Assembly (NCBI RefSeq): GCF_022846255.1
Contig: NZ_AP025682.1
Reading direction: 5' to 3' (one strand)
Length of the DNA: 64,000 bases
From: Escherichia coli
GTDB taxonomy: Bacteria > Pseudomonadota > Gammaproteobacteria > Enterobacterales > Enterobacteriaceae
The notes below the pieces were generated by a model, which did no database searches, had not been told where the DNA came from, and worked only from the letters and a program-made list of their open reading frames with translations. Both the position numbers and the translations under genes were made by a program. Positions 17,104 through 44,182 of the stretch are shown piece by piece; position 1 is the stretch's first letter; every line of letters begins with the position of its first letter.

Positions 17104-17314
17104 CCTGCCTTCCTTTGATACAATTCGTAACAGGTTACTATCATCATAAAAAAGCTCAACCCGATGAACTCGCTAAAAATGAGACAAATCATTTATATCT
17201 CGAAAAAACTTGTTACAATCATGAGCGCTACACCGAACTTAACCATATAAATTATGTGTGTTTTGTTTATTTTTTAAACAATTACAACTATCCATTATTT
17301 ACACAGGTATCAAA

Positions 17315-18967
17315 ATGTTAGCGCAGCTTTTTGAGCAGTTGTTTCAATCGATAGACTCTACACTGATCACCAATATTTTCATCTGGGCTGTTATATTCGT
17401 ATTTTTATCAGCGTGGTGGTGTGACAAAAAAAATATACATAGTAAGTTTAGAGAATATGCTCCAACCTTAATGGGGGCATTAGGTATTCTGGGTACTTTC
17501 ATTGGTATTATTATTGGGTTACTCAATTTTAATACTGAAAGTATTGATACCAGCATCCCCGTATTATTAGGCGGCCTAAAAACAGCATTCATTACAAGCA
17601 TTGTAGGTATGTTTTTTGCCATTTTATTTAATGGAATGGATGCTTTCTTTTTTGCCAATAAACGAAGTGCGTTAGCAGAAAATAACCCTGAATCTGTTAC
17701 ACCTGAACATATCTATCATGAATTAAAAGAGCAGAACCAGACTCTGACTAAATTAGTCTCGGGTATTAACGGTGATAGTGAAGGTTCTCTTATTGCTCAA
17801 ATAAAATTACTACGTACTGAGATTAGCGATTCCTCGCAGGCACAATTAGCTAATCACACTCATTTCAGTAATAAGCTTTGGGAACAACTTGAACAATTTG
17901 CAGATCTAATGGCAAAAGGTGCTACAGAACAAATTATTGATGCTTTACGACAAGTCATTATTGATTTTAATGAAAATTTAACTGAACAGTTTGGTGAAAA
18001 CTTTAAAGCACTTGATGCCTCTGTAAAAAAACTTGTTGAGTGGCAGGAAAATTATAAAACGCAAGTTGAGCTGATGTCAGAACAATATCAACAAAGTGTC
18101 GAGTCTCTGGTTGAAACAAAAACTGCGGTTGCCGGGATTTGGGAAGAATGTAAAGAAATTCCTCTGGCTATGTCTGAACTGCGTGAAGTGCTTCAGGTGA
18201 ACCAACATCAAATCAGCGAACTCTCCCGCCATTTAGAAACCTTTGTCGCCATCCGCGATAAAGCTACAACCGTATTACCTGAAATACAGAACAAAATGGC
18301 TGAAGTGGGTGAACTGCTGAAATCCGGAGCTGCAAATGTTAGTGCATCTCTTGAGCAAACCAGCCAGCAAATACTTCTTAATGCAGATTCAATGCGCGTG
18401 GCCCTGGATGAAGGTACCGAAGGATTCAGACAATCGGTTACCCAAACACAACAAGCATTTGCCTCGATGGCACATGATGTCAGCAATTCCTCCGAAACTC
18501 TAACCAGCACGTTAGGTGAAACAATTACTGAAATGAAACAAAGTGGTGAAGAATTCCTGAAGTCACTAGAGTCGCACTCGAAAGAATTGCATAGAAATAT
18601 GGAACAAAATACGACTAATGTAATTGATATGTTCAGTAAGACTGGTGAAAAGATTAACCATCAACTATCCAGTAATGCCGATAATATGTTTGATTCAATC
18701 CAGACATCATTTGATAAGGCAAGTGCAGGGCTGACTTCTCAAGTCAGAGAATCAATTGAAAAATTTGCTCTATCCATCAACGAGCAGTTACATGCTTTTG
18801 AGCAAGCAACTGAACGTGAGATGAACCGTGAAATGCAATCATTAGGTAATGCTCTGCTTTCAATCAGCAAAGGTTTTGTCGGTAACTATGAAAAACTTAT
18901 TAAAGATTACCAAATAATTATGGGGCAGTTACAAGCATTAATTTCTGCTAATAAACATCGAGGGTAA
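17315..18967 (+). CDS. zorA: ZorA-like MotA/TolQ/ExbB-family membrane protein with long coiled-coil tail
   Basis: Hydrophobic N-terminal helices (LITNIFIWAVIFVFLSAWW; LMGALGILGTFIGIIIGL; FITSIVGMFFAILF) followed by ~350 aa of heptad-rich sequence. Likely start at ATG 17315 (ORF track starts at 17258); first gene of a three-gene operon. Confidence 0.7.
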   Translation: MLAQLFEQLFQSIDSTLITNIFIWAVIFVFLSAWWCDKKNIHSKFREYAPTLMGALGILGTFIGIIIGLLNFNTESIDTSIPVLLGGLKTAFITSIVGMFFAILFNGMDAFFFANKRSALAENNPESVTPEHIYHELKEQNQTLTKLVSGINGDSEGSLIAQIKLLRTEISDSSQAQLANHTHFSNKLWEQLEQFADLMAKGATEQIIDALRQVIIDFNENLTEQFGENFKALDASVKKLVEWQENYKTQVELMSEQYQQSVESLVETKTAVAGIWEECKEIPLAMSELREVLQVNQHQISELSRHLETFVAIRDKATTVLPEIQNKMAEVGELLKSGAANVSASLEQTSQQILLNADSMRVALDEGTEGFRQSVTQTQQAFASMAHDVSNSSETLTSTLGETITEMKQSGEEFLKSLESHSKELHRNMEQNTTNVIDMFSKTGEKINHQLSSNADNMFDSIQTSFDKASAGLTSQVRESIEKFALSINEQLHAFEQATEREMNREMQSLGNALLSISKGFVGNYEKLIKDYQIIMGQLQALISANKHRG

Positions 18968-18973
18968 TCGATC

Positions 18974-19681
18974 ATGGATAAGATTATAGGGAAACAATTA
19001 CCTAAAAAAGATCAAGATAATGAACACTGGGTATCCATGTCAGACCTAATGGCAGGGCTGATGATGGTTTTTATGTTCATATCTATTGCTTATATGCACT
19101 ACGTACGTATTGAAAAAGAAAAAATTAAAGAAGTTGCCGTAGCCTACGAGAATGCTCAGTTACAGCTTTATAATGCTCTGGATATTGAGTTTGCAAAGGA
19201 TTTGCAAGACTGGGATGCAGAGATCGATAAGCAGACTCTGGAGGTTCGATTTAAATCACCGGATGTTTTATTTGGCTTAGGAAGCATAGAGCTTAAACCA
19301 AAGTTTAAACTCATTCTTGACGACTTCTTTCCTCGCTACCTAAAAGTTCTTGATAATTATCAAGAACATATTACTGAAGTCCGCATTGAAGGTCACACAA
19401 GTACTGACTGGACTGGAACAACGAATCCTGATATTGCTTATTTTAATAATATGGCACTATCACAAGGTCGTACACGTGCAGTATTACAATACGTTTATGA
19501 TATAAAAAATATCGCGACACACCAACAATGGGTTAAAAGTAAATTTGCCGCAGTAGGTTATTCATCTGCACATCCCATTCTTGATAAAACCGGCAAGGAG
19601 GATCCTAATCGCTCTCGTCGTGTCACCTTCAAAGTTGTAACAAATGCCGAGTTGCAGATTAGAAAGATTATTCAGGAGTAA
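18974..19681 (+). CDS. zorB: ZorB-like MotB/OmpA-family protein (single TM plus peptidoglycan-binding domain)
   Basis: N-terminal TM helix (LMAGLMMVFMFISIAYM) and OmpA_C-like motifs (IEGHTSTD, NMALSQGRTRAVLQY, NRSRRVTFKV); 7-nt gap after zorA. Confidence 0.7.
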   Translation: MDKIIGKQLPKKDQDNEHWVSMSDLMAGLMMVFMFISIAYMHYVRIEKEKIKEVAVAYENAQLQLYNALDIEFAKDLQDWDAEIDKQTLEVRFKSPDVLFGLGSIELKPKFKLILDDFFPRYLKVLDNYQEHITEVRIEGHTSTDWTGTTNPDIAYFNNMALSQGRTRAVLQYVYDIKNIATHQQWVKSKFAAVGYSSAHPILDKTGKEDPNRSRRVTFKVVTNAELQIRKIIQE

Positions 19682-19684
19682 GAG

Positions 19685-20788
19685 ATGAAATTATCTATCG
19701 ACATTTCAGAACTTATTCAATTAGGGAAGAAAATGTTACCAGAAGGAGTCGATTTTTTTCTGGATGAATCCCCTATTGACTTTGATCCTATAGATATTGA
19801 GTTATCCACGGGTAAAGAAGTTAGTATCGAAGATCTTGACCCTGGTAGCGGGCTTATCTCTTATCATGGCCGCCAGGTTCTTTTATATATTAGGGACCAT
19901 TCAGGGCGTTATGATGCGGCTATCATCGATGGCGAAAAAGGAAAACGTTTTCATATTGCCTGGTGCAGAACTCTTGATGAAATGCGCCATAAAAATCGAT
20001 TTGAAAGGTATCATGCAACTAACCGCATAGATGGTTTATTCGAAATTGATGATGGTTCAGGTCGGAGCCAGGATGTTGATTTACGGGTATGTATGAATTG
20101 TCTGGAACGACTTAATTACAAAGGAAGTATTGATAAACAAAGGAAAAGAGAGATTTTTAAATCATTCTCATTAAATGAGTTTTTTTCAGATTATAGTACC
20201 TGTTTTCGTCATATGCCTAAGGGTATCTATGACAAAACAAATAGTGGGTATGTCGAAAACTGGAAAGATATATCAAAATCAATACGAGAAAAGGCCAAGT
20301 ATACTTGTAATGATTGTGGTGTGAATTTATCAACCGCCAAAAACTTGTGCCATGTCCATCATAAAAATGGCATCAAATATGATAATCACCATGAAAACCT
20401 TCTTGTTCTGTGTAAGGATTGCCATCGTAAACAGCCCCTCCATGAAGGTATATTCGTTACCCAAGCTGAGATGGCTATCATTCAACGTTTACGTTCCCAA
20501 CAAGGGTTATTAAAAGCCGAATCCTGGAATGAAATATATGACCTGACTGATCCATCAGTACATGGTGATATTAATATGATGCAACATAAAGGCTTTCAAC
20601 CTCCTGTTCCTGGGTTAGATCTTCAAAACTCAGAACATGAAATTATTGCAACCGTAGAAGCAGCATGGCCAGGCCTTAAAATTGCAGTTAACCTTACTCC
20701 CGCCGAAGTCGAAGGATGGAGAATATATACCGTGGGTGAGCTGGTTAAAGAAATACAAACAGGAGCCTTTACGTCAGCAACGTTGTAA
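19685..20788 (+). CDS. zorE: ZorE-like HNH endonuclease
   Basis: HNH motif CNDCG...CHVHHKNG...NHHENLLVLCKDCH; immediately follows zorB (4-nt gap); MotA/MotB/HNH trio matches Zorya type II gene content. Confidence 0.7.
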   Translation: MKLSIDISELIQLGKKMLPEGVDFFLDESPIDFDPIDIELSTGKEVSIEDLDPGSGLISYHGRQVLLYIRDHSGRYDAAIIDGEKGKRFHIAWCRTLDEMRHKNRFERYHATNRIDGLFEIDDGSGRSQDVDLRVCMNCLERLNYKGSIDKQRKREIFKSFSLNEFFSDYSTCFRHMPKGIYDKTNSGYVENWKDISKSIREKAKYTCNDCGVNLSTAKNLCHVHHKNGIKYDNHHENLLVLCKDCHRKQPLHEGIFVTQAEMAIIQRLRSQQGLLKAESWNEIYDLTDPSVHGDINMMQHKGFQPPVPGLDLQNSEHEIIATVEAAWPGLKIAVNLTPAEVEGWRIYTVGELVKEIQTGAFTSATL

Positions 20789-20798
20789 ATTCCGAAAC

Positions 20799-20824
20799 TC
20801 CGTGAAAGTTAAGGCTTTCACGGA
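20799..20824 (+). terminator. Hairpin downstream of zorE (candidate intrinsic terminator)
   Basis: Perfect 10-bp inverted repeat tccgtgaaag / ctttcacgga with 6-nt loop, 11 nt after the zorE stop; T-run not immediately adjacent. Confidence 0.4.
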
Positions 20825-20998
20825 AGATAAATATAATTTTCCTGATTTGTGACTCAAATTACAAAAGTCGTTTATGGCATAACTTGTCTGTTTTTTTTGG
20901 TGTAATAGGTATAAAGGCATATGCTATGGTTAGCCTTATATTTAAAACTTTCCTCATACGGGTGAAGGTTAAAGATTGGTAGATAGGTTACAGTCACA

Positions 20999-21496
20999 AT
21001 GAATAAAGCAATAACGGTGCTTGCTATAATGATGGCTTCATTTTCCGTAAATGCGTATGTATTACCGGAAACGCCTGTGCCATTTAAAAGTGGTACCGGA
21101 GCAATTGATAACAACACTGTCTACATTGGTTTAGGTAGCGCAGGTACGGCATGGTACAAGCTGGAGAAACAGACCAAAGATAAAAAATGGACAGCGTTAG
21201 CTGCATTTCCTGGTGGACCGAGAGATCAAGCAACTTCTGCATTTATTGATGGCAATCTGTATGTGTTTGACGGCATTGGCAAAAACAGTGAGGGCTTGAC
21301 TCAGGTATTTAATGACGTTCACAAATACAACCTCAAAACCAATAGCTGGGTTAAATTGATGTCGCACGCGCCGATGGGCATGGCGGGTCATGTGACATTT
21401 GTACACAACGGCAAGGCTTATGTTACTGGCGGTGTTAACCAGAATATCTTCAATGGCTATTTTGAAGATCTTAACGAAGCTGGAAAAGATTCAACA
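20999..21496 (+). pseudogene. nanM: nanM (yjhT) N-acetylneuraminate mutarotase, 3-prime truncated (first ~166 codons only)
   Basis: Translation matches my recollection of E. coli NanM from the signal peptide through ...EDLNEAGKDST, then diverges into an unrelated 36-codon tail before a stop at 21607; full-length NanM is about twice this length. Confidence 0.8.
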
Positions 21497-21614
21497 TACC
21501 GAACGCCGGAGAACTGGACGACGACACCACGAAGCAGTCATTTCAGTCGGGGGATGATTGTAGACAAATTTGTTGACGCTATTTTGCGGTTTTGGCGTGA
21601 AGGGTGAGCATTCA

Positions 21615-22193
21615 TTAATTTGATTTATTTGCATCCATCAACGCTTTTAACTGCTCCGGCGAAAACGGTGGTTTGCGTCGGTGCAACATCGCATGGCAAT
21701 TAGGGCACACAGGAAGCAAATCATTAACTGGATCCAGCTGGTAATTCTCTTTAATGGCTGAAAGCGGCACCAGGTGATGCACATGGATAAAGCCTTCAGC
21801 GATATCACCATAGATCTTCACCAGATCAACGCCGCATACGTTGCACTGGCATCCATGATGTTCGACCGCTTTATCTCGGGCCTTTTTATCGCGTTCATAG
21901 CGGTTTACTGTCACCTTTATCGCCGCACTTTCAACGTATGTCTCCTGCGACGGCAACTCATCCGGGAACAGAACGTCGGCTATGGGAGCCGCAGCGGCTT
22001 TATCCAGATGAATATGAAATCCCTGCTCTATGAGTAGCTTGAGACATTTAGATTTTATTCCGCCGGTGAAATCCGCAGGGGTAAATTGCGTCCCCGTCAT
22101 CAATGTCGCTGCGATGCCAGCAATCGCCTTCGAGGGGTAACGTCGGCCATGAATACAACCGCGCAGGCTGGAACTGATGAGTTTCTCCCGCAT
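21615..22193 (-). CDS. HNH endonuclease (192 aa)
   Basis: C-terminal HNH signature HHGCQCNVCG...HVHHLVPLS...NDLLPVCPNCH; N-terminal ~100 aa unassigned. Confidence 0.65.
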   Translation of the reverse strand: MREKLISSSLRGCIHGRRYPSKAIAGIAATLMTGTQFTPADFTGGIKSKCLKLLIEQGFHIHLDKAAAAPIADVLFPDELPSQETYVESAAIKVTVNRYERDKKARDKAVEHHGCQCNVCGVDLVKIYGDIAEGFIHVHHLVPLSAIKENYQLDPVNDLLPVCPNCHAMLHRRKPPFSPEQLKALMDANKSN

Positions 22194-22333
22194 CCCATAA
22201 ATGGATAGCTTCGATGATATACCGCCGCGGAAGATGATCGGGGAGTTTATTCATGGAGAATGTCCTTATACGTTCTCAGAACAGGCAGCAAAAAAACAAA
22301 TGAGATCAAGGTAATATATCTTCACTTGCAGGC

Positions 22334-23263
22334 TTGAACAGCAGAAAATTTGCGAGCATGATCGCAATTATTTCACTGCCAGGGATATCAATGGCTTCCA
22401 GTAAATCGCTACAGCAGGCAATTGCCAATATAAAAATCTGGCACAAGGGTGAACAGCGCGCGCCGCATAAGCCATTGTTATTGCTATATATATTAGCGGG
22501 ATACCTGAATGGACATCCGCGCCTTTTCGATTATGGCTCGGAAATCTACGAACCTCTGCACAGTTTACTGGAACGTTTTGGGCCACAGCGTTCACAGTAC
22601 CGACCTGATATGCCGTTCTGGCGATTACAAGGCGACGGATTCTGGCAATTACACAATGCCGAGCTTTGCTCAACAGCAGGGAGCAGCCGACAACCACCAG
22701 TGAAGGAACTGACTGAATACCACGTTGCAGGCGGTTTCGATGAACAGCACTACGCCCTGGTAACTGGCAATAAAAAACTCATCAATACTCTGGCGCAACA
22801 GATACTCGAAGCGCACTTCACCGAGAGTATTCAGGAAGAAATTGCTGACGAGCTGGGTTTTGATCTCCAGCAAATCCGTAAACAGCGCGACCCGTTATTT
22901 CGCAAAAATGTATTACGCGCTTATAACTACCAGTGCGCGATATGTGGCTTTAATATGCGCCACGACGACACCACCGTCGCGCTGGAAGCGGCGCATATAA
23001 AATGGAAACAGCACGGCGGTCCTTGTGAAATTCCTAATGGCCTGGCGCTTTGCGCAATTCACCATAAAGCCTTTGATAAAGGATCGATTGGCCTGGATGA
23101 AAATATGCGGGTACTGGTATCAGATGCGGTAAACGGCGGAGGGATCGTTGAGAAACTATTCTGGGATTTTGACGGGAAAACTATTGCTTTGCCGCAGGTA
23201 CGTAAAAATTACCCTTATGAGGGATTTGTGGAGTGGCATCGAAAAGAGGTTTTTAGGGGGTGA
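22334..23263 (+). CDS. Two-domain HNH endonuclease (309 aa), N-terminal putative DNA-recognition domain; candidate modification-dependent restriction enzyme
   Basis: C-terminal HNH signature YQCAICGF...AAHIKWKQHGG...NGLALCAIHHKAFD; ~200-aa N-terminal domain (HKPLLLLYILAGY...) unassigned; divergent from the 192-aa HNH gene. Confidence 0.6.
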   Translation: MNSRKFASMIAIISLPGISMASSKSLQQAIANIKIWHKGEQRAPHKPLLLLYILAGYLNGHPRLFDYGSEIYEPLHSLLERFGPQRSQYRPDMPFWRLQGDGFWQLHNAELCSTAGSSRQPPVKELTEYHVAGGFDEQHYALVTGNKKLINTLAQQILEAHFTESIQEEIADELGFDLQQIRKQRDPLFRKNVLRAYNYQCAICGFNMRHDDTTVALEAAHIKWKQHGGPCEIPNGLALCAIHHKAFDKGSIGLDENMRVLVSDAVNGGGIVEKLFWDFDGKTIALPQVRKNYPYEGFVEWHRKEVFRG

Positions 23264-23373: not shown

Positions 23374-24372
23374 TTATTGTTCAGCTTTTTCAACAACAAA
23401 ACCATTTTGCCGTACAAACTCAATCAAGAGTTCAATATTAACAATGCCCCATTGATTAGAAATAGCAACAATTTCACCAGAGGGAAGTGTAATCAACGCA
23501 TCTTCATTAATATGATAGCGACTTTTTTGCTTCTCTGGTATCTGATCGATAAGCATAACCGTACGTTTTTTAAAGTCATCACTTAATCCATTTATTAAAT
23601 CATTATAACTTGCAGGATTAAATTGTCTTATCCAATCACGTAATAATTCAAGCGCTAATTTACGTTTATTAAGTTCTTTATCTTTATATATATACCACGT
23701 ATAGTCCTTCTCTTTTTTCTGACTGCTAATTAGCTGTTCATCACGTTTTTCACGAAATTTAACTTGATATTCTTCCAATTCAGGAACCGGTATGATTTGC
23801 TCTGCATTGATTAGAACATCATCATTAAATCTATAAGGCGTCAGACGAACACATCGAATGTCTACCCCCTTATCTCTTAACCAAATCGCAGTGGTAGTCA
23901 GTTCCTTGCTAAAATCCGATGATGCCAAAACAATTCTGATATCTTTTCCGAAATCAACAAGCTCAGTTTCATCCAATTCAACAAATTCAAGTATTTTTTC
24001 TTTCGCATCGGCATCGCAGTTTTGTTTTTTCAAATACGTCTGGAAATATTCACATGCTTTCGCAAAACTCATTGTGGAAATCATCGCCGCATATCGTAGT
24101 GCCTGTAACTCCATATGCGCCCCCGTTTCATCACGTTTTAATTCGATAACCACTAAATTTGCCTGTTTATCGATTGCCAATAAATCAATTCGCCGACGGC
24201 TATCTTCCCAGTCAGAAAACTCTTCGGAAATCACCAGACAATCAGGAGCAATAATATCTATATTTTTTTTGATTGCTTCCTGTAAATCATAACGTTCCTG
24301 TAATCCTTCCAGAGTAAATGTCGTTTTTTCTAAAGCATGTAGTTCTTTATTTGCGATATTGTACAGCGCCAC
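23374..24372 (-). CDS. PD-(D/E)xK nuclease, NucS/DUF91-like N-terminal domain plus unassigned C-terminal domain
   Basis: Motif RIDLLAIDKQANLVVIELKRDE (D...ExK with the typical DUF91 spacing) near residue 60-80; monocistronic-looking gene between the HNH pair and jetD. Confidence 0.5.
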   Translation of the reverse strand: MALYNIANKELHALEKTTFTLEGLQERYDLQEAIKKNIDIIAPDCLVISEEFSDWEDSRRRIDLLAIDKQANLVVIELKRDETGAHMELQALRYAAMISTMSFAKACEYFQTYLKKQNCDADAKEKILEFVELDETELVDFGKDIRIVLASSDFSKELTTTAIWLRDKGVDIRCVRLTPYRFNDDVLINAEQIIPVPELEEYQVKFREKRDEQLISSQKKEKDYTWYIYKDKELNKRKLALELLRDWIRQFNPASYNDLINGLSDDFKKRTVMLIDQIPEKQKSRYHINEDALITLPSGEIVAISNQWGIVNIELLIEFVRQNGFVVEKAEQ

Positions 24373-24498: not shown

Positions 24499-25554
24499 CT
24501 ATATAAATAAACCTAAAGAAGCCACACCTTCTTGGGGTAGACGCTGGTGGATCGCCAGAAGAGTCTTCATTTCTCGTAAAACAAACTTTGGCATCCAGCC
24601 ACACTGTAACTCGAAATCAAACCGTTCGTTGTTGGCGTTCCCTTCCGCTGTCATCAGGCCATTTAAGATCAGTTTATTATAAAGCCATTCATCTAAATGC
24701 AAGCTGATACCGTAATCATTAAGCAACTTACAACGCAACTGATGAGCGATTTTTAAGCCCGCAACATCCAGATCGCCAAAATAAAGTAGTTGTTCTACCT
24801 GTTCGACCTCAAGGAGTTGTGACACGCACTCCGCCTGACCGGAAACTTTGTTACCTGCGCCATAAATGACCAGTGACCAGCGAGTCTGTGCTCGATTAAG
24901 TTGGCATAGCCGATAATACACATCGGAGTTTTCAACAATGATAGCCGGAAGATCATGGCAACGAGATGACTCATACGGTAAAGGCGGCGCACGTCGAAAC
25001 GCGCCCATATCAGCCAAAGTCAGAGTGACATGCTTCCAGCCATCAGGTGGCAAGGAGTCCAGAGCTTTTTCGTCACCAAATATAAGCAGAGACCGCTCAC
25101 GATGTCCAAGCAAGCCCGGGAATAGCGACTTGTCGCCCCCGGTTTGGCGAAAAAGATATGTATTCAGCTGTTGTAAGCGTGCCTTGATTGGCTGGGTAAG
25201 TTGTCCTGTAATACGTCGGGCCAACCAGGGATGCCAGGCTATTTCTGATGTTGTCTTCGTAGGAACGATGGCACCTTCGTAAACAAAAGTACTTGGCAGG
25301 CTCATACCCCGCCAGTAACGCTGCCAACTCGCTTTGTGCTTAGGTTGAGCCCGCCAGTCCCTTTCAAGCAGTTGCGTAACAGCCTGACTCAGCAAATCAG
25401 GCACCTCCTGGCTCAAGGCCTCTTGATTGTGTGCGCGTAATACCTCATCCAGCACCGCATTAGCTTTCACTGTACGCACGGCCTTACCAGCGGCAAGACG
25501 ATGTTTATTGGCTGTCGACTCCAGTCGGGATAGCCAGATCATTACGCTACTCAT
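24499..25554 (-). CDS. jetD: JetD-like Toprim-domain protein (Wadjet)
   Basis: C-terminal Toprim-like acidic motifs (AIIVENSDVYY; LYFGDLDVAGLKIA); last gene of a four-gene minus-strand operon following an SMC-like ATPase. Confidence 0.65.
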   Translation of the reverse strand: MSSVMIWLSRLESTANKHRLAAGKAVRTVKANAVLDEVLRAHNQEALSQEVPDLLSQAVTQLLERDWRAQPKHKASWQRYWRGMSLPSTFVYEGAIVPTKTTSEIAWHPWLARRITGQLTQPIKARLQQLNTYLFRQTGGDKSLFPGLLGHRERSLLIFGDEKALDSLPPDGWKHVTLTLADMGAFRRAPPLPYESSRCHDLPAIIVENSDVYYRLCQLNRAQTRWSLVIYGAGNKVSGQAECVSQLLEVEQVEQLLYFGDLDVAGLKIAHQLRCKLLNDYGISLHLDEWLYNKLILNGLMTAEGNANNERFDFELQCGWMPKFVLREMKTLLAIHQRLPQEGVASLGLFI

Positions 25555-25566
25555 CTCATATCAACC

Positions 25567-28500
25567 TTAAATGACTGGATCGAACTGTGGCTTAGCAGCC
25601 AGAGAAGCCGCCCACAGGGCATGGCGTTCTTTATCAACGGTTACCAAATCGCGCCGCCTCAGTTTTTGAACTTTATTCAGGAAGAGATGGTTATCAAACA
25701 TTGATTGGGCGTTTTCATCCGAAATACCAGTCAGGTAGATGAGCTGGATTTTATAGGCTTTGGCCATTTGGGTTTGAATGCGCATTAGATCATTGGCATT
25801 CGATTTACCCAGCGGGTTATCGGCTAACAAGAATCCTGCACTTGAAATACCCGTATCGTACTCTCGTACTTTACCAACCGTCACAAACAGTAAAAAGGCA
25901 GATGTAAGGCGCTGTCCACCCGAACCTTCAAGTCGGGTGACAGGAGTCCATTGTGGACGGCTGGCATTCGTCTTCAGCAAACGCACCTCCAGTTCCCCTT
26001 CGCCAAATACCGACTGAACCAAATCAGCTGTCAAGGCGTCCCGATTGGGCGCTCGGGGTATCTGTCCCCTGGCTATCCACTGCTGCAAGCGGCTGCTGGC
26101 AAAACCCCTGATATCAGCGGCAACATCATTCAACCGGTCGGTCATTTTAATAATGGGCCGACCAGGCAGTACGGGGCAATCCTCAGGAATTTTGACCGAC
26201 ATCGCGCGCCTGAGAAGCTTAATCGCCCCTTCCAGATGAGCAGTCAGATGGGTGACAGTCAGATCAATCGAACGTTGGAATTGCTCGAGGCTGTCCTGCA
26301 CAGCTTCGAATACCTGCGAGATCCCTGTACCGACCCTCTCCAAATCGCCCAGCACTTCATGATAAGTTGCGATTGAGTCCAACGGCCGTAAGTATTCCTG
26401 ACTGGCTCGGGCGTCTGGATCCTTGGCCAACTCTTCTTCGATGCGTTTGCGGAATTTTCCCCAGACCGTAGAGACGCGCATATTTTGCTGTTTTAGCGTT
26501 TCATTTAAACCGGCATACACTTGGCATTGTGCAGCCAGATCGTCAGCATATTCTGTGATGCTCAGGATCCTACCAGGTAGACCTGCGGCAGAGCTCGGCG
26601 TAATGGGCTGGATCATCGCTTGAGCTGTTTTGGCGTTCTGTAGCCGCTCTTTCACATTTTCAATCTTTCTCAACAGCAGTGTCTTTTGTTCCAGTAGGAA
26701 CTTGATCTGGTGTTCAATCGCATAAAGGTTATTGACGATTTCAGCCAGAGACGTTTGGATTGCCTCTATCTCAATGGGCTTCTCTTCCCAGACAAAATCC
26801 TCGTCAAGTGCTTTACTAGCCTCCTCACAGCTTTGGGAAAATTTTTGCAGAGTTACCTGAGAGCTAATTAGATTTTGCGTGAATTGCTTTTGCTGTTCTT
26901 TGAGGCGTACGATGCTGTTATTAATTACCGTTAGCTCATTGATGGCCGCAGCTTTTACCTCATCCGGATATGTATTGTAGGTGGGTTGAGCGGTCAAACG
27001 ATCAGAGGCGTAACGTTGTGCCTGTTCAGCATCTTTCAGTTGTTGCTTGAGAACGGTCACTTGATCACCGTTGGCTGCTTCGAGCAATTTTTTGTGCGCC
27101 TGAGCAGCCATCTCATGGGCATATTCAGGGCTTCGTCCTTCCATACCTTCAGTCGCCGTAATCTCTGAATAGAACGGTTCGTTACACAGATTACTCCAGC
27201 TACCTATCTGGATAATTAAAAGGGTTTTCTCGGAGCGTTTGTTCTTCTCGAGCTCGCTCAGCCGTTCCAGCCTCTCTCTCTGGGTGTAAAGAGTGTTCTT
27301 GCTTCGCTGAATCTGTGCAGCTAACTGCTCCAGTTTCATTATCGCCGTTTCACGCTTCGCCCATTCTTTTTCTACAAAAAGACTCACTTTATCATGTGCT
27401 TTTTCTGCCTGAATTTTCTGCTGTTGGGCGTTGTTTAAACGCACCTGGACATCTCTCTTCTCGTCACGCAGTGTTTGCTCATCATGCTCAGCTTGCTTAA
27501 GTGCTGCATCAGCATTTTCCAGTATTAATAGAGCCAGCTCCCGTTGGTCAAGCAGTCCCGCCCAATGCTTACCATACTGTTCGTAATGCCGACTCCAGTC
27601 ATTCCTGAAAGATTCCAGTACTTTAAGGGCGCTCTCCGCAGCCTTCACACTGACTTCCTGCGACGCTACGGTATTCTCCAGGTCTTGCAGCCGGGTTTCG
27701 TAAGCGGCCTGGCTATATCCGTGCTTATCGGGGTTTGAGAGGACAACCTGTACTAATTCAGACGTTTCTCGGCGGAGATCTTGTGCTTCATCCAGCAAGT
27801 AAATAGCAATAGGTGCCTTCTTCCAGGGTAGGATCTCACTAATTTTATGGACCTGTTCAAACGTTACATTGTCGAGTGCGACCAGGCTCAGGTAGCGGCC
27901 AGGGTTCTGATCGATCACCGCTGCAATCTTTTGTGCATCATCGTTGTGAGCAGAGGCCAAATAGTGTGGAAATGTCCATAGCTTATCCCGTGCAATGCCC
28001 GCAGCATAAAACGCTTCAAGTGCCTCATTGACCTGCTTAGCAACCAGTTCATGTCCCGTCACCCTCAACTCGTCCAGTTCGTGCCGGGCTTGCAGTAAAC
28101 GCTCTTTCATTCCATTCAGCGTTTGAGCGTTCGCATTCAATACTTTGTCGAGCTGCAATCCACACAGCTCGCTGTGCCAACTCGTGTCTTCAATATCCAG
28201 ATCATGTCGCGTTGACGATGGCAGTTTTTGATAGGTTTTTGCTAAAAGTAAGGCACTATCCACAGCTGACTGGTGTTTTTGTTTAGCCAGAATGAGTTTT
28301 TGCTGGGCCTCACTTTTCTCAATTGATGCCTCCCGCACAACATTCAGCTGTGCTTCCAGCGCCTGCTCTTTCTGATGAAGAATTGTATTAGCCAGTTCTT
28401 CACTCTGCTTTGCATCGCGTAAGGTTAATTCCAGTCGGTATTGGGCTGCTACTGGTGTTTCATCCTTCTGGATCAACCCAGCTTCACATAATTCATTCCG

Positions 28501-30003
28501 TTGCGATTCGCCCTGAAATTTGTCTCTTTTATATCCGTCACGCTCCGTTTCCAGACCACCCAACGTCTTTTGTAGTTTATCGTATGACTGTCTGAGGACA
28601 TGGCTTTCCCTGTCCATCTGCCCTAATTCTTCCTCAAGCGTAGCCTCCTGCTGGCGATGTCTGTCGATTGCCCACTCTAATGTGCCCAAGGCTTCGCCAG
28701 CAGTACGCTCGAAAATCACCTGTAGCGGCCTTTCCGTTTCACTTTGGAATACCTTCAGATCTTCATCTGCCTGGCGGTACTCATTCAGGGCCTTAGCATA
28801 GGCTTTGTAGTCTATAGCAGCGTGAGTAATCTCAATCTGGTGCTGATTGGTATCGGCTTCGTCTTGAAGCGCATCGACTATCGCTTTTTGTTTGTCGAAC
28901 TGATGCTGCACGAGATCATATTCAAGCAGTGCTCTGCGCTTACCTAACTGCTCACGCAGAGACATCGCCTGGCCAATATGTGTTTGCAAACTATCCATGT
29001 TATCTTCAAGCTGCGTCTGTTCAACCTGAGCATCCCCGACAAAGGCTGCGAGATCGCGCATTGCTTCTCGGAAGCCATCATCCAGCAGTTGCTGCTGTGC
29101 CTGGATGCTTTCCAGCTGTTTAGCCGGATCAAGAAACGCCAGCCAGTTAGCCAGCACATCCTTCAGGAAGGACTCGTTACGACGAATCCCCTCTAACTCT
29201 CCCTGACGCTCAACTTCATGCGCTACCAGTTCCCGCAGCCGCTCAGCCGCATCTTTAGACATGGTGCAGGCGAAGAACGCGCCAAGGAAATCATGTTCAG
29301 TTTTGTATTCGATAAAACGGGTCAGGCCACCTTCTTCGGAGTTGAAGGTCACCATTGTTTTGATAAGATCAACGTTAATTTGTTGTTCCAGTAAAAATGC
29401 GCGCCACTCGTTCTGTCTGGTGGTTTTACGCCAATGCATACCGCCTTCACTACCGGCCTTGAGATTAAGCCAGCTATCAAAACTGCGCAGGCTATTGGCA
29501 TAGGGGCGCAGCTCAGAATTGCGTTCCGCGCGGGAATAAGAAGGGACTTCATCAAACGGCGCGCCCATCAGGGAGTCGGGCGCATCACAAATAAACAGTG
29601 TCCGGTCAACATCATCTCCATTACGCTGATGAGCATGTCCTAGTAATAACGTTTGTCCTGATTCATTGACCATCTCAACCAAAACAACAGAGAGTTCTTT
29701 ATAGAAGTAATTGCGGTAGTGGTATTCACTCTGGCGATGATTTGCCAGATATTGGGTGAAGTCACTAACGGACGGCTCAAAAATCGATAACAGCAGCGCG
29801 ATGTAGGTCGACTTACCACCCCCATTCACAAGCTGCTGATAAGTACTGGTCACCACCTTCGCATTCCTGACGGGCGAGCGCAGACCTTCAACAACAGGGC
29901 TACTGACCGCTTGAGACAGGCCAATATAGTCCAGTGTGAGGTCCTTGTAGAAAGCTTCTTCATGGCCTGCACCATCCATATAAACCCGTTTAATCAGCCA
30001 CAT
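25567..30003 (-). CDS. jetC: JetC-like SMC/MukB-family ATPase (Wadjet)
   Basis: 1478 aa; N-terminal P-loop (VNGGGKSTY), very long coiled-coil middle, C-terminal signature/Walker B region (LLADNPLGKSNANDL...IQLIYLTGISDE). Confidence 0.7.
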   Translation of the reverse strand: MWLIKRVYMDGAGHEEAFYKDLTLDYIGLSQAVSSPVVEGLRSPVRNAKVVTSTYQQLVNGGGKSTYIALLLSIFEPSVSDFTQYLANHRQSEYHYRNYFYKELSVVLVEMVNESGQTLLLGHAHQRNGDDVDRTLFICDAPDSLMGAPFDEVPSYSRAERNSELRPYANSLRSFDSWLNLKAGSEGGMHWRKTTRQNEWRAFLLEQQINVDLIKTMVTFNSEEGGLTRFIEYKTEHDFLGAFFACTMSKDAAERLRELVAHEVERQGELEGIRRNESFLKDVLANWLAFLDPAKQLESIQAQQQLLDDGFREAMRDLAAFVGDAQVEQTQLEDNMDSLQTHIGQAMSLREQLGKRRALLEYDLVQHQFDKQKAIVDALQDEADTNQHQIEITHAAIDYKAYAKALNEYRQADEDLKVFQSETERPLQVIFERTAGEALGTLEWAIDRHRQQEATLEEELGQMDRESHVLRQSYDKLQKTLGGLETERDGYKRDKFQGESQRNELCEAGLIQKDETPVAAQYRLELTLRDAKQSEELANTILHQKEQALEAQLNVVREASIEKSEAQQKLILAKQKHQSAVDSALLLAKTYQKLPSSTRHDLDIEDTSWHSELCGLQLDKVLNANAQTLNGMKERLLQARHELDELRVTGHELVAKQVNEALEAFYAAGIARDKLWTFPHYLASAHNDDAQKIAAVIDQNPGRYLSLVALDNVTFEQVHKISEILPWKKAPIAIYLLDEAQDLRRETSELVQVVLSNPDKHGYSQAAYETRLQDLENTVASQEVSVKAAESALKVLESFRNDWSRHYEQYGKHWAGLLDQRELALLILENADAALKQAEHDEQTLRDEKRDVQVRLNNAQQQKIQAEKAHDKVSLFVEKEWAKRETAIMKLEQLAAQIQRSKNTLYTQRERLERLSELEKNKRSEKTLLIIQIGSWSNLCNEPFYSEITATEGMEGRSPEYAHEMAAQAHKKLLEAANGDQVTVLKQQLKDAEQAQRYASDRLTAQPTYNTYPDEVKAAAINELTVINNSIVRLKEQQKQFTQNLISSQVTLQKFSQSCEEASKALDEDFVWEEKPIEIEAIQTSLAEIVNNLYAIEHQIKFLLEQKTLLLRKIENVKERLQNAKTAQAMIQPITPSSAAGLPGRILSITEYADDLAAQCQVYAGLNETLKQQNMRVSTVWGKFRKRIEEELAKDPDARASQEYLRPLDSIATYHEVLGDLERVGTGISQVFEAVQDSLEQFQRSIDLTVTHLTAHLEGAIKLLRRAMSVKIPEDCPVLPGRPIIKMTDRLNDVAADIRGFASSRLQQWIARGQIPRAPNRDALTADLVQSVFGEGELEVRLLKTNASRPQWTPVTRLEGSGGQRLTSAFLLFVTVGKVREYDTGISSAGFLLADNPLGKSNANDLMRIQTQMAKAYKIQLIYLTGISDENAQSMFDNHLFLNKVQKLRRRDLVTVDKERHALWAASLAAKPQFDPVI

Positions 30004-30005
30004 AC

Positions 30006-30902
30006 TTAAATCTCCGTCAAGCGTTGCGTTTCTGTGGTTCCAGTTGTAACTGGACGTTCATTGAGCGAAGGAAACTCCAGGGTATCTGCTAATGCTGCAA
30101 GATCGCTTTCAGCTAAATCGGACGACCGTTCTTCTACGGCTGGACTGATGCTCATGACAAAGCGCACCGTCTCTTCGATGCCAGTATGGCGCAGATAATG
30201 TTTGAGTTTTTGGGTCGGATACCAGTCGGACTCTCCCGACAAACTGCTGTCTTCGGCCAGAAAGCCTTCCTCCTGCAGCAGTTGTATCCAGCGCGTTGCC
30301 ATTTCTGTTTGCGAGCGAATACTTGAGACACGCCCTACCTTTTCGTCGTGAATACGGGGAATACGTTCTTCCTGCACAAACCTGGCCGCCATAAGTAGGC
30401 CATCTACGGTATCGTCACCCTCGGCCTTGCGCTGGGCAATCACCTGGTCGGCAACATTATTGAGCCTGGCTACCACCGAGGCTGCATTAATGGCGTTACT
30501 CTGACCGAACTCGACACGAACGGTGTCTGGAGTTGGAAACAAATCAGCCAGCAACGCAATCAGAGTTAAGCCTGCAAACAGGCGCTGTTCTTTCCGTTCC
30601 TTACCCTGTTGCTCAGCCATTGTTTCAGGTAGCAAGCGTTTGTTCAGCCAACCCAAAGATGGGGAAAACGGACCTCGGCCATCTGCAGCCAGTAATACCC
30701 CGTAGGTCTCATGAATCCCGAGATACCGCAATTTCATACCTGTCGCGACGCCACGGATAATCTCTGTGAACAGGGCATCACCTTGCAGATCAAGAGCACG
30801 TTGAATCAGCTCATCCCCCATTTTATATCCCAGTGAATTCATAATTGCCTGCGTGGCAATCTCGGCGTAGCGTTTAGTTTGTTGATGCGCGTTGTCGTAC
30901 AT
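30006..30902 (-). CDS. jetB: JetB-like (MksE-like) subunit (Wadjet)
   Basis: 298-aa ORF translationally coupled between jetA (4-nt overlap) and jetC (3-nt gap); assignment by size and operon position. Confidence 0.55.
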   Translation of the reverse strand: MYDNAHQQTKRYAEIATQAIMNSLGYKMGDELIQRALDLQGDALFTEIIRGVATGMKLRYLGIHETYGVLLAADGRGPFSPSLGWLNKRLLPETMAEQQGKERKEQRLFAGLTLIALLADLFPTPDTVRVEFGQSNAINAASVVARLNNVADQVIAQRKAEGDDTVDGLLMAARFVQEERIPRIHDEKVGRVSSIRSQTEMATRWIQLLQEEGFLAEDSSLSGESDWYPTQKLKHYLRHTGIEETVRFVMSISPAVEERSSDLAESDLAALADTLEFPSLNERPVTTGTTETQRLTEI

Positions 30903-30904
30903 AA

Positions 30905-32371
30905 CTACTCCTCAAAGGGGTATAAGGGAGCAACCGTTAACAGTTTGATATTGTTAGCCCGCCAGAGCGTTGTTTCGATAGCGCCGTCTATCTCCACTTC
31001 TATTGCGGGATCGCTGTTAGCTGCCAGGCTGCCAATATGGAGTAAACAAACCTGTTGCTCTTGTTCGGATAATTCTTCGCCCTCATAGGCGTCAAAAACA
31101 TCTCTAAAGCTCACATGCCCCCAATTCTTCAATCGGTCACTAACCCAATCGCTGCATTTTTTAATGACAGATTCAGGGATACCTCGCAGGTTGGTTTCAA
31201 TAGCTACAGGCTGATCGGTGAGGTCCTGTATCTCATGTGGAAGCGCCTGTTCAAATCTATCGAGATAAAGGTTCAGCAGCGCCTCAAGGTCAAACAGAAT
31301 GTGCCGATCATCATCCTGTCTTCGGGGAGCCAACAGGCGTGCGGTGAGATCATCGATTTCCTTTTCGACAGTGTCGGGGGAATGAGACAGCAAGGGCTTG
31401 AGTGCACCTTTTTCCAGTGTTTCCCGAAAGAGGGTATTATCTCTGGGAATAATGAGTTTCAGACGAGCTCGCTCAAAATCTTTATTCACATCCAGTAAGC
31501 AGTCTTGATAGCGCTGCGTAAAAGCGCAGACCTCAGCAAAAATCTCCTGTGCTCTACGTAGCTTATTTAATTTGTCGGGATTTAATTTCGAAATTCCTTC
31601 AACCAGCATTTCGGTAATGGCCGACATTGAGTTCTGGATATGTTCCAAAACCTCTCGGGTTTTATCAAAGGAATCATTGAGTACGGGACGGATATCGTGT
31701 GCATAAGATGCACTCAAATCACCAGACTGGGCGGCACGCACTTTCATCCGCATTCCAATCAGATATTGCTCCAGTTGCCGCTGTGTTGATTGGATTTGGT
31801 GTACTGCCTTGTCGATCTCTCCGCGACGGATCGTTTTAAGCGTGCGCCAGGCCAGAATCGCAGCGCGTTCTATCGGCGTTTCATCCAAGCGCAGGGTATA
31901 GAACAACATTCCTTCATCAGTCAGCGACCAGAGAATATCATCTGAGCCGGATAGCTGGTCATAGCGTACCAGACGGACTATCTGCTCTTCGGAATGCGTT
32001 CGTTGCGAGAAATCATAATAACGGAGGCGGAAAGGATCTTTGATCGCCACAAAAATCTTGCTGGCCACTTGTGCGTAGTCGGGTTCTTCTTGTCCCGGAT
32101 AGGCTTCATTGAGGTGCCCAACCAGACATAACTCCGCTTCCTTACGCGTCATTCCAGGCCGGCGCTCGCGGTCAGCATAATAAAGCATGGCGTCAAAGAG
32201 ATACATGATTGCCGCCAGCGCATCAAGCTCAACACCATCGAACGGATTTCGCTGAAGGGCGCTATATATTGAATCCAGCGTCCGCACGACCAGCAAGGCG
32301 TGAGACTGAATAGACAGCTCACGACGTGCCATTGATTCATTACGAGCCTGCTCCAAAAACCCTAGCGACAT
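30905..32371 (-). CDS. jetA: JetA-like (MksF/kleisin-like) subunit (Wadjet)
   Basis: 488-aa ORF, first gene of the operon; assignment by size and position upstream of JetB/JetC/JetD. Confidence 0.55.
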   Translation of the reverse strand: MSLGFLEQARNESMARRELSIQSHALLVVRTLDSIYSALQRNPFDGVELDALAAIMYLFDAMLYYADRERRPGMTRKEAELCLVGHLNEAYPGQEEPDYAQVASKIFVAIKDPFRLRYYDFSQRTHSEEQIVRLVRYDQLSGSDDILWSLTDEGMLFYTLRLDETPIERAAILAWRTLKTIRRGEIDKAVHQIQSTQRQLEQYLIGMRMKVRAAQSGDLSASYAHDIRPVLNDSFDKTREVLEHIQNSMSAITEMLVEGISKLNPDKLNKLRRAQEIFAEVCAFTQRYQDCLLDVNKDFERARLKLIIPRDNTLFRETLEKGALKPLLSHSPDTVEKEIDDLTARLLAPRRQDDDRHILFDLEALLNLYLDRFEQALPHEIQDLTDQPVAIETNLRGIPESVIKKCSDWVSDRLKNWGHVSFRDVFDAYEGEELSEQEQQVCLLHIGSLAANSDPAIEVEIDGAIETTLWRANNIKLLTVAPLYPFEE

Positions 32372-32546: not shown

Positions 32547-33440
32547 ATGTACTACTCAAAGTTTCTTGAGAAACACAAATCCCCCCTCAGCCACGCACAA
32601 TGGTTGCGCTTGCGCTATATTGAGCGCCAGCTACTGTGGGAACGAAAAGTCACTTCGCGCATGATTGCTGAAGAGTTTGGCGTCTCGGCGCAACAAGCTC
32701 GTACTGATGTAAGAACCTATATGGAGGTCGCTCCAGGCAATGCTATTGAGAAGGGGGCCGGCCGAAAAGGGTATTTCCCCAGTACGACGTTTACGCCTGT
32801 TTTGCTGGGAGACAACGATCTGGTCTGGCGTGCGACGGTAGAATTTCAACCGCCGCAAGCGGCCCACGCGCAGGAAATCCCGCTCATCCATCGCGCCGTG
32901 CATAGCCGCACGCTGGCAATTTTTTTGTCAGCAATCGAACAGAAAGGACAAGTAAAAGTGACTTATGCGTCAATGGAAAACCCGGAAGGCATATCTCGTA
33001 CACTAAGCCCTACGGTAATTATCACCGTTAACGGGCGTCAGCATGTGCGAGCCTATGACTGGGGAAGTTCGGCGTTTAAGGACTTTGTTTTGGCGCGATT
33101 TCTGGACTCGCCGGAACTGATTGTTCCTGCACCCGCCCCGCCACGCAAAGATACCGCGTGGGAGGTCATAATCCCCGTGCGTTTTATCGCAAATCCAACA
33201 CTAAACAAAGCGCAACAAGAGGTAATTAAGCGGGACTATTTACTTGAACCCTCTGAATTCAACATTCGTGCACCAATGATTTTTTATTTATGCCCTGAAA
33301 ACAATCTGCCTAAAACAGATGATGAATATGCACAAGCTACTGACGCCAGCAGCCACGGCCCCTTTATCTACCCTGTTCTAGCTGTGCACGCCCAAACAGG
33401 GGAGCCTATTCATAAGTACCGCCATGCAGGTGAGAGATAG
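32547..33440 (+). CDS. HTH transcriptional regulator with WYL-like domain (BrxR/CapW-like)
   Basis: HTH segment (SRMIAEEFGVSAQQARTDVRTYM) followed by WYL-like core (VRAYDWGSSAFKDFVLARF); divergent from jetA. Confidence 0.45.
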   Translation: MYYSKFLEKHKSPLSHAQWLRLRYIERQLLWERKVTSRMIAEEFGVSAQQARTDVRTYMEVAPGNAIEKGAGRKGYFPSTTFTPVLLGDNDLVWRATVEFQPPQAAHAQEIPLIHRAVHSRTLAIFLSAIEQKGQVKVTYASMENPEGISRTLSPTVIITVNGRQHVRAYDWGSSAFKDFVLARFLDSPELIVPAPAPPRKDTAWEVIIPVRFIANPTLNKAQQEVIKRDYLLEPSEFNIRAPMIFYLCPENNLPKTDDEYAQATDASSHGPFIYPVLAVHAQTGEPIHKYRHAGER

Positions 33441-33559
33441 ACATTCTGTTTACTAATAATTTATAGCCATTTTCTGCTCCTGCATCAGAGATATGATGCA
33501 GGAATATTAAATACCAGCCACCTATAAATTATGATTTATTAATTTCTGATTCAGTTAAA

Positions 33560-33850
33560 TCCCTCTGAAAATAGACCCGTTTTAGTTCCATGCATCTTTA
33601 GAAATTCCGACCAAATAATGGGGTCGGCAAACATCTATTTGAGACGTTGGTTCTCATCCTCAAGATCCTTGATTATTTTAATATCAGAAGATTCCATACC
33701 GCCGTATCTGGACTTGCAGTTGTAGTAAGTGGCTTAAGATAAGCCGGCCTCCCGGCAGACATCTTTAACAGTTTGCCCGTATTCAAGCGATTTAATCACG
33801 GCGATAATCTGATTCTCAGTAAAAGGGACTTTACGCATAGCGATCTCCTT
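33560..33850 (-). mobile_element. Degenerate IS3-family transposase OrfA fragment
   Basis: Minus-strand ATG at 33838 with AGGAG RBS encodes MRKVPFTENQIIAVIKSLEYGQTVKDVCREAGLS then a stop; a shifted frame continues with a leucine-zipper-like ...KDLEDENQRLK...; no OrfB follows. Confidence 0.4.
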
Positions 33851-33948
33851 CATTGGCAGATTGATTATGCCGGAGGATCTCTAAATGTTAATGGCACGAT
33901 TATGCGGGATATTTACAATACCAGTCCAACCCTCAGCTTACTGCAATG

Positions 33949-34818
33949 TCAATCAAGAGGGATGGTCCACATTGACGTATCAAAATCGATCTCTGACCAG
34001 CGAGCAAAACGTAGCTCACTGGAGCGAATAAAGATAAGCAGAGTGAGTTCCGTTGCCCAGCGGGTTAGCGGCCTGCCGGTATAGCCGTCTATTTTCTCAA
34101 GTAACTCAGGGATGCGCTTTAACTCCAGCGCCGGACGATGCTGTCGATTACTGGAAGCAACCGCCCCCGCCATCTCTTGTGCCGGGTTATAATCAATTAA
34201 TCCACTTTGCACTGCATAACGCATGATGGCCGTGGTGCGCTGTTGAAGGCGGGAAGCCACTTCAAAACGTCCAGATTTCTCCACGGCTTTAATGGGAATT
34301 AACAGATCGCGGGTGCCCAGTTCAGCAATATTGCGAGCAACAATTGTTGGGAAGATATTGTCCTCCAGGCTCTTTTTTCCACGATTAGCATGATCTTCCG
34401 ACCATTTTTGGTTGGTTACGAGCCACTCTCTGGCAACCTTCTCGAAAGTAATAATCTCTTTCGCCTGCTCTTCTTTCACAGCACGTTTATGCTCACGAGG
34501 ATCGATACCAGCAGCGACCAGCTTTCTGGCCTCTTCCCTTTTCTTCCGCGCATCCGCCAGCGAAACATCCGGGTAAACGCCGAACGCCATCAAATGTTGT
34601 TTACCACCAAAACGGAAACGAAATCGCCAATACTTTGAACCGCCAGGTTTTACAAGTAAAGACATGCCGTCGCCGTCAACAAGTGAATACTCTTTCTCCT
34701 CAGGTTTTGCAGGACGAACTTTAGTATACGTTAGGGCTATAGTGGTCTTCCTTCCATTGGTATCTCGTGAGTATACAAGCAATATCGAATCGGCAAATAT
34801 ACTTATAAGTATACTCAC
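33949..34818 (-). pseudogene. P4-type tyrosine integrase, C-terminally truncated (intB-like remnant)
   Basis: Residues align with the N-terminal two thirds of the intact integrase at 51593-52840 (GSKYWRFRFRFGGKQ..., RLQQRTTAIMRYAVQSGLIDYNPAQ, LTLLIFIRSSELRFARWSEIDF) but end at ...WTIPLD before the catalytic region. Confidence 0.75.
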
Positions 34819-34903
34819 AAGCCTGTTGATGTGGGTTGAGTCAGGTTGACTTCAGTTGAGGAGAAAAGCTGGAAAAGCCTTGCGTAGCGCGGATTTCAGG
34901 CAT

Positions 34904-34927
34904 AAAAAAAGACCTCAGTTGAGGTCT
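34904..34927 (-). terminator. Intrinsic terminator (ancestral leuX terminator relic)
   Basis: Hairpin agacctca-gt-tgaggtct flanked by A7 on the plus strand, i.e. stem plus T7 on the minus strand; lies just downstream (minus sense) of the partial tRNA copy. Confidence 0.6.
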
Positions 34928-34940
34928 ATTTACATACTTT

Positions 34941-34963
34941 TGGTGCGAAGGCCGGACTCGAAC
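34941..34963 (-). repeat. 23-bp direct repeat of the leuX 3-prime end (att site / island junction)
   Basis: tggtgcgaaggccggactcgaac matches the 3-prime end of the tRNA at 53030-53054 except for one deleted base. Confidence 0.8.
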
Positions 34964-35685
34964 ATATTAATTATCCCGTTGTATTTAAGGCTATTTTATC
35001 AAAATCATTATTGAAGTACCATCATTAATACCATCATAGGTATTGTTCTCCTTTGGCAACAGTTCTTTGATATCGAAATACTTTAACGAACTTTTTATGA
35101 CATCATACTTTGAAGAAAAAATCACATACTGATTTTCATCCAGTACATCTTGCAAGACAAGGTATAAAACAGGGACTACGATTAAAAATAGCAAAGTCAT
35201 TCACTAAATGAATTCAAAATCAGTGATGTTCTTATCTGCAAGAATATAATATATTTAAAAGATTATAAGCAATATATAAATAATAATATAGCTTTAAAAA
35301 AACACACATGAATTAGAAGTTAAATACATTAATTAAAGAAACAAATAAGTAAGAATTTTGTTTTTAAATAACTCATGCAAACGCATCGTTTATTTATATT
35401 AAAGGAAAATGATGAAATCCAATCTAAATTTAAATAGCTACATTACAAACGAATAGAAAAAGAAGCATTTTCCATGTTAAACTACTATCTTGGTGAAGAC
35501 AGGGGGTATAGCCTTCTGCGGTAGCCTACGCTCTTCGAATGCAAAGCAAGAAAATAACCTTTATAATCAAATTGTTATGCAATGCGCTTGTAGAGCAAAG
35601 GTATCTTAAACGAATAGGTTTAACAGTTAAAGCCTCTTTACATAGGCTGAACAAGGGCAGTACTTGAAAATGATAAAATTGGGGT

Positions 35686-41506: not shown

Positions 41507-41771
41507 TGTATCAAAATCTGTTAACCATCTCCAATTACGAATAGCAATATTTATATAAAACTAATTTTTTATTTTAAACAACTTCAGCAAGGGCTAACTC
41601 TCAGCATCTCCTTCGGTGATACTTTGAGTTGCTCCTTGTTTTTTCGCCCTTTGGTTGAAAAAATTAAAAGCAAAACCAACCCTATACATTGACTTTTTCA
41701 GCATCTATCATATAAATAAAATAAGCATAATGGACATGCTTATTTTACTTTACTATATGAAAGGAGTTCAT

Positions 41772-43372: not shown

Positions 43373-43580
43373 TTTCTCCACAGATAAACGATCGTTATAA
43401 TCGATCGATTTATTTATATTGATAGTCAATAACAATCAATAGGTAAATAATCGATCGGTACAAGCAATTTGCTATGTCCTTAGAAGTGTTCAAAATGTAC
43501 TTTCATGCATAAATCGGATAATAGGTTGATTTTACTAGCCTATTTTTCTATCCACGTATCGAACATGCAGGGACTGAAGT

Positions 43581-44171: not shown

Positions 44172-44182
44172 GGAAAACAAGA

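Follow-up and report, generated by a model that had tools for sequence, protein, structure and literature searches.

A nanM gene that breaks off after codon 166, beside a Zorya operon on an Escherichia coli chromosome, raises two questions. What kind of junction is this break, and is the strain left without a sialic acid mutarotase? We address both in a window of 64,000 nucleotides, the whole stretch of DNA that was analysed. Our answer, to which we would assign a probability of roughly 85%, is that the truncated gene and what follows it are a relic, that is, a redundant and decayed second copy of the nanM-nanS unit, sitting at the distal edge of a ~32-kb defence block of the OI-172 type.

The open reading frame at 20999..21607 (+ strand) is 202 aa long, and we compared it with the NanM family (profiles NF010730 and TIGR03547, reference structure 2uvk). 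The N-acetylneuraminate epimerase profile NF010730 matches it with an E-value of 1.6e-75, over residues 1-167 only (profile positions 6-177 of 384); at 254.3 bits the match falls short of the curated cut-off of 416 for a full-length protein. A search of solved structures aligns its residues 21-167 with residues 2-148 (of 357) of YjhT/NanM 2uvk (E-value 3e-93), and those residues are all that is retained of the complete six-bladed Kelch beta-propeller, which has about 350 mature residues. Over relic residues 1-166 there are 11 substitutions relative to K-12 NanM (about 93% identity) and zero indels, and therefore the NanM match ends, with ...GKDST, at residue 166, nt 21494-21496. The initial annotation had placed the truncation, after codon ~166, correctly, and chance could not account for a match of this strength. 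What is left of the gene, nanM' (codons 1-166, 20999..21496, + strand), is homologous to E. coli NanM and consists of the signal peptide and about the first 147 mature residues of the propeller. It is preceded by the 20 bp that lie between nanC and nanM (20979..20998, + strand), which start directly past the nanC stop position, as aligned with K-12 and O157:H7, and in which the nanM ribosome-binding region is still present.

The tail past GKDST (21497..21607, + strand) comes from nanS: it comprises the final 36 codons of that gene, read in the nanM frame up to the native nanS stop; K-12 alignment, the structure 3pt5 and PGAP all identify it as nanS. In a PDB search the tail matches NanS 3pt5 residues 287-336 with an E-value of 1.9e-10, and of the full-length NanS/YjhS sialate 9-O-acetylesterase domain the last 36 residues only are present. 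Its translation, YRTPENWTTTPRSSHFS, a gap of four positions, then RGMIVDKFVDAILRFWREG and the stop, aligns with the K-12 NanS C-terminus, YRSPENWTTALRSSHFSTAARRGIISDRFVEAILQFWRER and the stop, and 12 bp are deleted, in frame, from the nanS tail of the window. In NZ_CP086678, PGAP calls this stretch a sialate O-acetylesterase, partial, missing its N-terminus. The K-12 alignment and 3pt5 together rule out that the tail is unrelated DNA, which is how the initial annotation had described the sequence after GKDST, and also that it is a genuine variant of NanM, the other possibility raised there.

The two gene fragments meet at a deletion junction at 21490..21497 (+ strand), with nanM ...GATTCAAC on one side, nanS ...GGTTCAGCG on the other and the break ahead of TACCG, and the junction carries the microhomology TTCA(A/G)C. 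Codon 166 of nanM is joined in frame to codon ~287 of nanS, and ~1531 bp are absent with respect to K-12, namely nanM codons 167-368, a 64-bp spacer and nanS codons 1-286. The identical junction is found in 92 of 5426 complete E. coli genomes, always together with the whole arrangement.

The predicted product starts with a signal peptide, continues with roughly the first 40% of a six-bladed Kelch propeller and finishes with 36 residues of NanS. Such a 202-aa protein cannot build a propeller and would almost certainly lack any function. The relic is an ordinary pseudogene, and the truncation itself is known: PGAP and RefSeq already mark it as 'N-acetylneuraminate epimerase, incomplete, missing C-terminus', for example as CA902_RS19780 in NZ_CP042896, and as LMF34_RS06670 and LMF34_RS27010 in NZ_CP086678. 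These entries have the same sequence as the relic in the window, identical or near-identical, and their annotations are silent on its status as a duplicate and on the fragments being one in-frame fusion. An Rfam scan around the relic matched no RNA family.

To the left of the relic is a type II Zorya operon (17258..20788, + strand), with zorA2 at 17258-18967, zorB2 at 18974-19681 and zorE at 19685-20788, the last one matched by the NCBIfam ZorE equivalog with an E-value of 2e-208. The OI-172-type defence block, made up of ARMADA II, Druantia III and Zorya II, fills window 1-20788, and Zorya II closes it on the right. PADLOC calls ZorA2, ZorB2, ZorE2, DruH3, DruE3 and a DrmD-like helicase, and the RefSeq annotation of a 99.5%-identical locus (L001) also supports the gene identities. 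This block, with the same gene set in the same order, has been published (bioRxiv 10.1101/2025.09.22.677730), in a work that makes no mention of nanM, nanS, leuX or island borders.

The zorE stop is at 20788, and it is followed by a 190-bp Zorya II 3′ flank (20789..20978, + strand) that is conserved together with zorE. Homology to K-12 sets in immediately past the nanC stop codon, at 20979, which puts the junction between accessory and core DNA at 20978/20979; nanC is absent from the relic locus. Window 20200-20990 is matched over at least 80% of its length in 565 of the 5426 complete E. coli genomes, and matches of O157:H7 strains to the zorE-flank region extend to window ~20983-20987. In all, about 565 genomes, O157:H7 among them, have this junction. 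A rearrangement upstream of nanM, which the initial annotation had suspected, is real.

How the relic relates to the ordinary operon is best seen against K-12 nanCMS (nanC b4311, nanM/yjhT b4310, nanS/yjhS b4309), an operon at which the leuX hotspot typically has its distal border (bioRxiv 10.1101/2020.03.26.007484). A first alignment with the relic, of 94.4% identity, opens at the base that follows the nanC stop and runs as far as nanM nt 497; a second, over window 21490-21609 at the DNA level, covers the last ~130 bp of K-12 nanS through the nanS stop. Beyond that stop, K-12 DNA downstream of nanS (L002 42503-42626 and 42269-42515) matches window 22226-22350 and 22411-22658. The second of these matches (90.7% identity) is a 5′ remnant, kept by K-12 next to nanS, of the phosphorothioate-DNA-binding (PT) restriction endonuclease gene found complete in the window at 22391..23263 (+ strand; NCBIfam NF045808, E-value 1e-131). 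Compared to K-12, the relic lacks nanC and has ~1.53 kb deleted, it is a second copy with the ~32-kb defence block between it and the intact operon, and its nanS stop is followed by an HNH endonuclease gene that K-12 does not have.

That HNH gene (21615..22254, - strand) normally comes directly after nanS in E. coli strains without the block. As an example, the block-less strain Z1323CEC0005 has the order fimB-nanC-nanM-nanS-HNH-restriction endonuclease remnant, with an HNH region 96-99% identical to that of the window. From this order and this identity it follows that the junction of the relic with the HNH gene is the ordinary nanS-to-HNH junction of E. coli. In the window the HNH gene is frameshifted, relative to CFSAN061771, by an 11-bp deletion near 22152, and is split into ORFs at 21615-22193 and 22048-22254. 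Among the 30 full-coverage matches listed, the stretch that matches is ~11 bp longer (1611-1612 vs. 1601 bp) in all but one interrupted by IS1, and the copy in the window appears to be the sole frameshifted one among the matches listed.

Related genomes have another, intact copy on the other side of the block. Window 700-34963 is 99.46% identical to CFSAN061771, which has an intact nanC and a 1107-bp nanM adjoining fimB, ~34 kb to the left of its relic. We inspected eight of the 92 genomes with the deletion junction (CFSAN061771, EC42405, 19SZHZ713Rt, M160133, C4, EFF60, Z1323HEC0462 and T-HYM1), and all eight carry an intact nanC and a 368-aa nanM beside fimB. In 19SZHZ713Rt, the left nanCMS is complete, K-12 homology stops ~5-7 bp past its nanS stop, and then come the block and the relic; both units, the intact nanM-nanS to the left of the block and the relic to its right, lie on the + strand, as a duplicate in direct orientation. 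More broadly, nanM-nanS is contiguous with the left flank of the block in 446 genomes. The order of a block-bearing locus is fimB - nanC - [nanM - nanS] - block - [nanM - nanS] - HNH - PT-restriction endonuclease ... leuX.

The window opens within the block, in the ArmB methyltransferase gene, ~14 kb short of the expected position of the intact nanCM, and because it starts there only the second nanM-nanS unit is visible in it. By extrapolation from the eight relatives, we infer that the source genome probably still has the intact left nanM. The initial annotation had predicted that sialic acid mutarotase is inactive, and that prediction finds no support when every relic-bearing relative inspected has an intact nanC-nanM beside fimB.

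Two side observations concern the left part of these loci. The fimB-proximal nanS of CFSAN061771 (NZ_CP042896.1, L004 22421-23401) and that of several relatives are called partial pseudogenes by PGAP. The one left nanS that we translated, that of CFSAN061771, has an open frame of 981 bp that runs collinear with intact nanS, and we set aside a loss of nanS in that copy despite the truncation call by PGAP; the call looks like an annotation inconsistency. In addition, window 1-311, inside the ArmB methyltransferase gene, does not align to relatives that are otherwise 99.6% identical, and it does align with EC42405. These first ~311 bases look like a local allelic swap within the block.

The relic has decayed independently in other lineages. 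The O157:H7 locus has the same junction between the zorE flank and nanM as the window, and differs in its decay. In the O157:H7 strain we inspected, the left junction and nanM nt 1-16 of the relic are as in the window, nt 17-353 are gone, and nt 354-598 remain, reaching 100 nt past the window breakpoint at nt 497. From there the DNA passes straight into the upstream region of the PT-restriction endonuclease gene, and the nanS tail and the HNH gene are lost. Since O157:H7 keeps nanM sequence beyond the breakpoint seen in the window, the second copy must once have been longer.

The sequence of the relic is also a mosaic. Set against five full-length nanM alleles, the relic segment of 517 bp (20979-21495) has 21 fixed differences (5.9%) from all five in its first ~356 bp and none in its last ~160 bp. 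No full-length nanM in complete genomes is above ~93.6% identity to the 5′ part of the relic, and a protein database search for a full-length NanM with its divergent N-terminal allele gave only partial proteins, at 96% identity or less. Non-synonymous and synonymous differences in the relic, G91D included, stand at about 1:1, a ratio that fits relaxed constraint and would also allow a foreign allele. The nanS tail is a divergent allele as well, ~77-79% identical to the tails of intact E. coli nanS including that of K-12, 93% identical to what is left of nanS in Escherichia whittamii Sa2BVA5, and 89% identical to the tail in Escherichia sp. E1V33. These two came from a scan of species-representative genomes for the tail allele; each has a nanS tail only, and the scan gave no intact donor nanS.

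In both E. whittamii Sa2BVA5 and Escherichia sp. E1V33, nanS is cut down to its last ~194 bp. In the former (L014 1525-1731) that remnant lies ~100 bp beyond an intact nanM, and in the latter (L015 1379-1560) it lies ~100 bp beyond a nanM 3′ end, where the locus stops. These losses of nanS are independent, with the tail spared again.

A recent simple duplication would not be expected to give 5.9% divergence in the 5′ part and ~20% in the nanS tail. This much divergence requires an allele that is foreign or older, or a lengthy neutral decay accompanied by partial gene conversion, or the two combined. One genome shows such an exchange. From ~position 30 to 356, the relic of 19SZHZ713Rt now carries the allele of the resident nanM in place of its own, and its relic-type bases next to the junction remain. 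The two copies in that strain (NZ_CP080070.1, L006 40219-40735 vs. 6126-6642) are 98.1% identical, compared to 94.6% for those in CFSAN061771. We take this replacement as direct evidence for gene conversion between nanM copies 34 kb apart.

How could the second copy have arisen? We propose a single homologous crossover within nanM-nanS, in which a locus without the block recombined with a circular molecule, or with a sister chromosome, that had the unit together with the block; unequal recombination would be an alternative route to the duplication. That the duplication occurred by homologous recombination within nanM-nanS, in a Campbell-type or an unequal exchange, is a proposal to which we would give about even odds. 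The redundant distal unit itself has lost ~1.5 kb by a microhomology-mediated internal deletion that fused nanM to nanS in frame, and distal copies are decaying by deletions and frameshifts and exchange sequence with the intact copy. A crossover of the proposed kind would agree with a mosaic that changes at ~nt 356 of the relic segment, and so would a later gene conversion like that in 19SZHZ713Rt.

It could be instead that the relic is the original chromosomal nanM-nanS, and that the intact unit came with the block horizontally, unit and block being inserted at the nanC stop with no crossover inside the unit. This account agrees with the relic being joined to the HNH gene exactly as nanS is in block-less strains, and with the right junction of the block falling exactly at the nanC stop. 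On the other hand, an original chromosomal copy sits uneasily with a 5′ part that differs from all the full-length E. coli alleles compared, next to 160 typical bp at the 3′ side, a mosaic that is better explained by crossover or gene conversion inside the unit. We consider the insertion of unit plus block rather unlikely. Both it and the crossover produce the same final architecture, and the data separate them incompletely.

Far less probable is the reading in which the codon-166 break is the far junction of a leuX-associated island, and the only nanM of the strain has been inactivated. It is true that nanM is truncated, that it sits among accessory defence genes, and that a 3′ repeat of leuX is present at 34941-34963 (- strand, 23 nt, with one base deleted). 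But what follows the break is nanS, and past the nanS stop comes K-12 synteny; the O157:H7 relic has nanM beyond the breakpoint; and all eight relatives with the same relic have an intact nanM. The break is a deletion internal to nanM-nanS, and its reading as an island edge, put forward by the initial annotation, fails.

The leuX repeat itself, reported in that annotation as a tRNA repeat, does exist. The link made there between it and the nanM break does not hold, as the repeat bounds a separate, independent island of 18 kb (34941-53114) that runs to the full leuX at 53030-53114 (- strand), includes integrases, a relaxase, an N-6 methylase and a sensor kinase, and is present alone at leuX in strain TUM11353 (99.7% identity). 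A search of the window for the 17-nt leuX 3′ core, allowing up to 3 mismatches, finds it only at 34946-34962 and 53036-53052, and not near 20979 or 21496. A leuX att repeat at the nanM junctions, that is, the direct repeat of a tRNA 3′ end that bounds tRNA-associated islands, is therefore ruled out, and with no such repeat at either relic junction the leuX integrases are not implicated.

We add some observations on the DNA that lies between the relic and leuX. The tandem of the 18-kb island and the inner island (across 33500-53200) occurs in none of the 5426 complete E. coli genomes. Further defence genes occupy the stretch from the relic to the inner att repeat: PDC-S11 (23374-24372, - strand), a type III Wadjet JetD (24499-25554, - strand), and three more minus-strand ORFs in 25567-32371 (1478, 298 and 488 aa) that presumably complete the Wadjet operon; in a near-identical record, these three are annotated as one coiled-coil protein and two hypotheticals. 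They are followed by a regulator of the BrxR family (32547-33440) and by a degenerate integrase (33949-34818, - strand).

We also considered whether the nanS tail could be there for a reason. Antisense to it there is a small ORF of 25 codons (21538..21615, - strand), the translation of which, MNAHPSRQNRKIASTNLSTIIPRLK, is homologous to K-12 YthB, MNKLPAHLSRQNCKIASTNLSEIIPRRAAVLK. The ORF has an ATG that shares bases with the stop codon of the HNH gene (TAATG), and in L001 it is annotated as a hypothetical protein. One could argue that the tail is under selection as an antisense gene, encoding a conserved YthB-like micro-protein whose translation is coupled to that of the HNH gene, and that this would explain its persistence in at least three nanS loci that decayed independently; we regard that as highly improbable. 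The broader idea, that the in-frame NanM'-'NanS fusion or the nanS tail is kept for a function, either as a secreted truncated Kelch protein or for the antisense ythB-like ORF coupled to the HNH gene, is the least credible of all: even though the fusion is in frame with signal peptide and ribosome-binding region retained, its frame is open in the window and the 517-bp segment is 100% identical in the nearest relative, the tail survives three different nanS deletions (in the window, E. whittamii and Escherichia sp. E1V33), and the ythB-like frame is open in the window and in E1V33, the relic has further frameshifts in other carriers (PGAP notes), O157:H7 is without the tail and most of nanM', G91D alters the double-glycine (GG) motif of the Kelch repeat, no sigma-70-like promoter site was found on the + strand between zorE and the relic, E. 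whittamii is without the ATG of the small ORF, and a frame of 25 codons may stay open by chance.

Returning to the second-copy reading, anyone with only the window to go by would suppose the mutarotase lost, when the relic is a redundant copy and related strains keep a working nanC-nanM at a distance of ~34 kb. From the duplicated nanM-nanS flanks one can also read off precisely where the OI-172 block begins and ends, at gene boundaries in both cases: on the left, 5-7 bp past the nanS stop, and on the right, at the position of the nanC stop. These flanks suggest that the OI-172 block entered, or moved, by homologous recombination and not by means of a leuX integrase.
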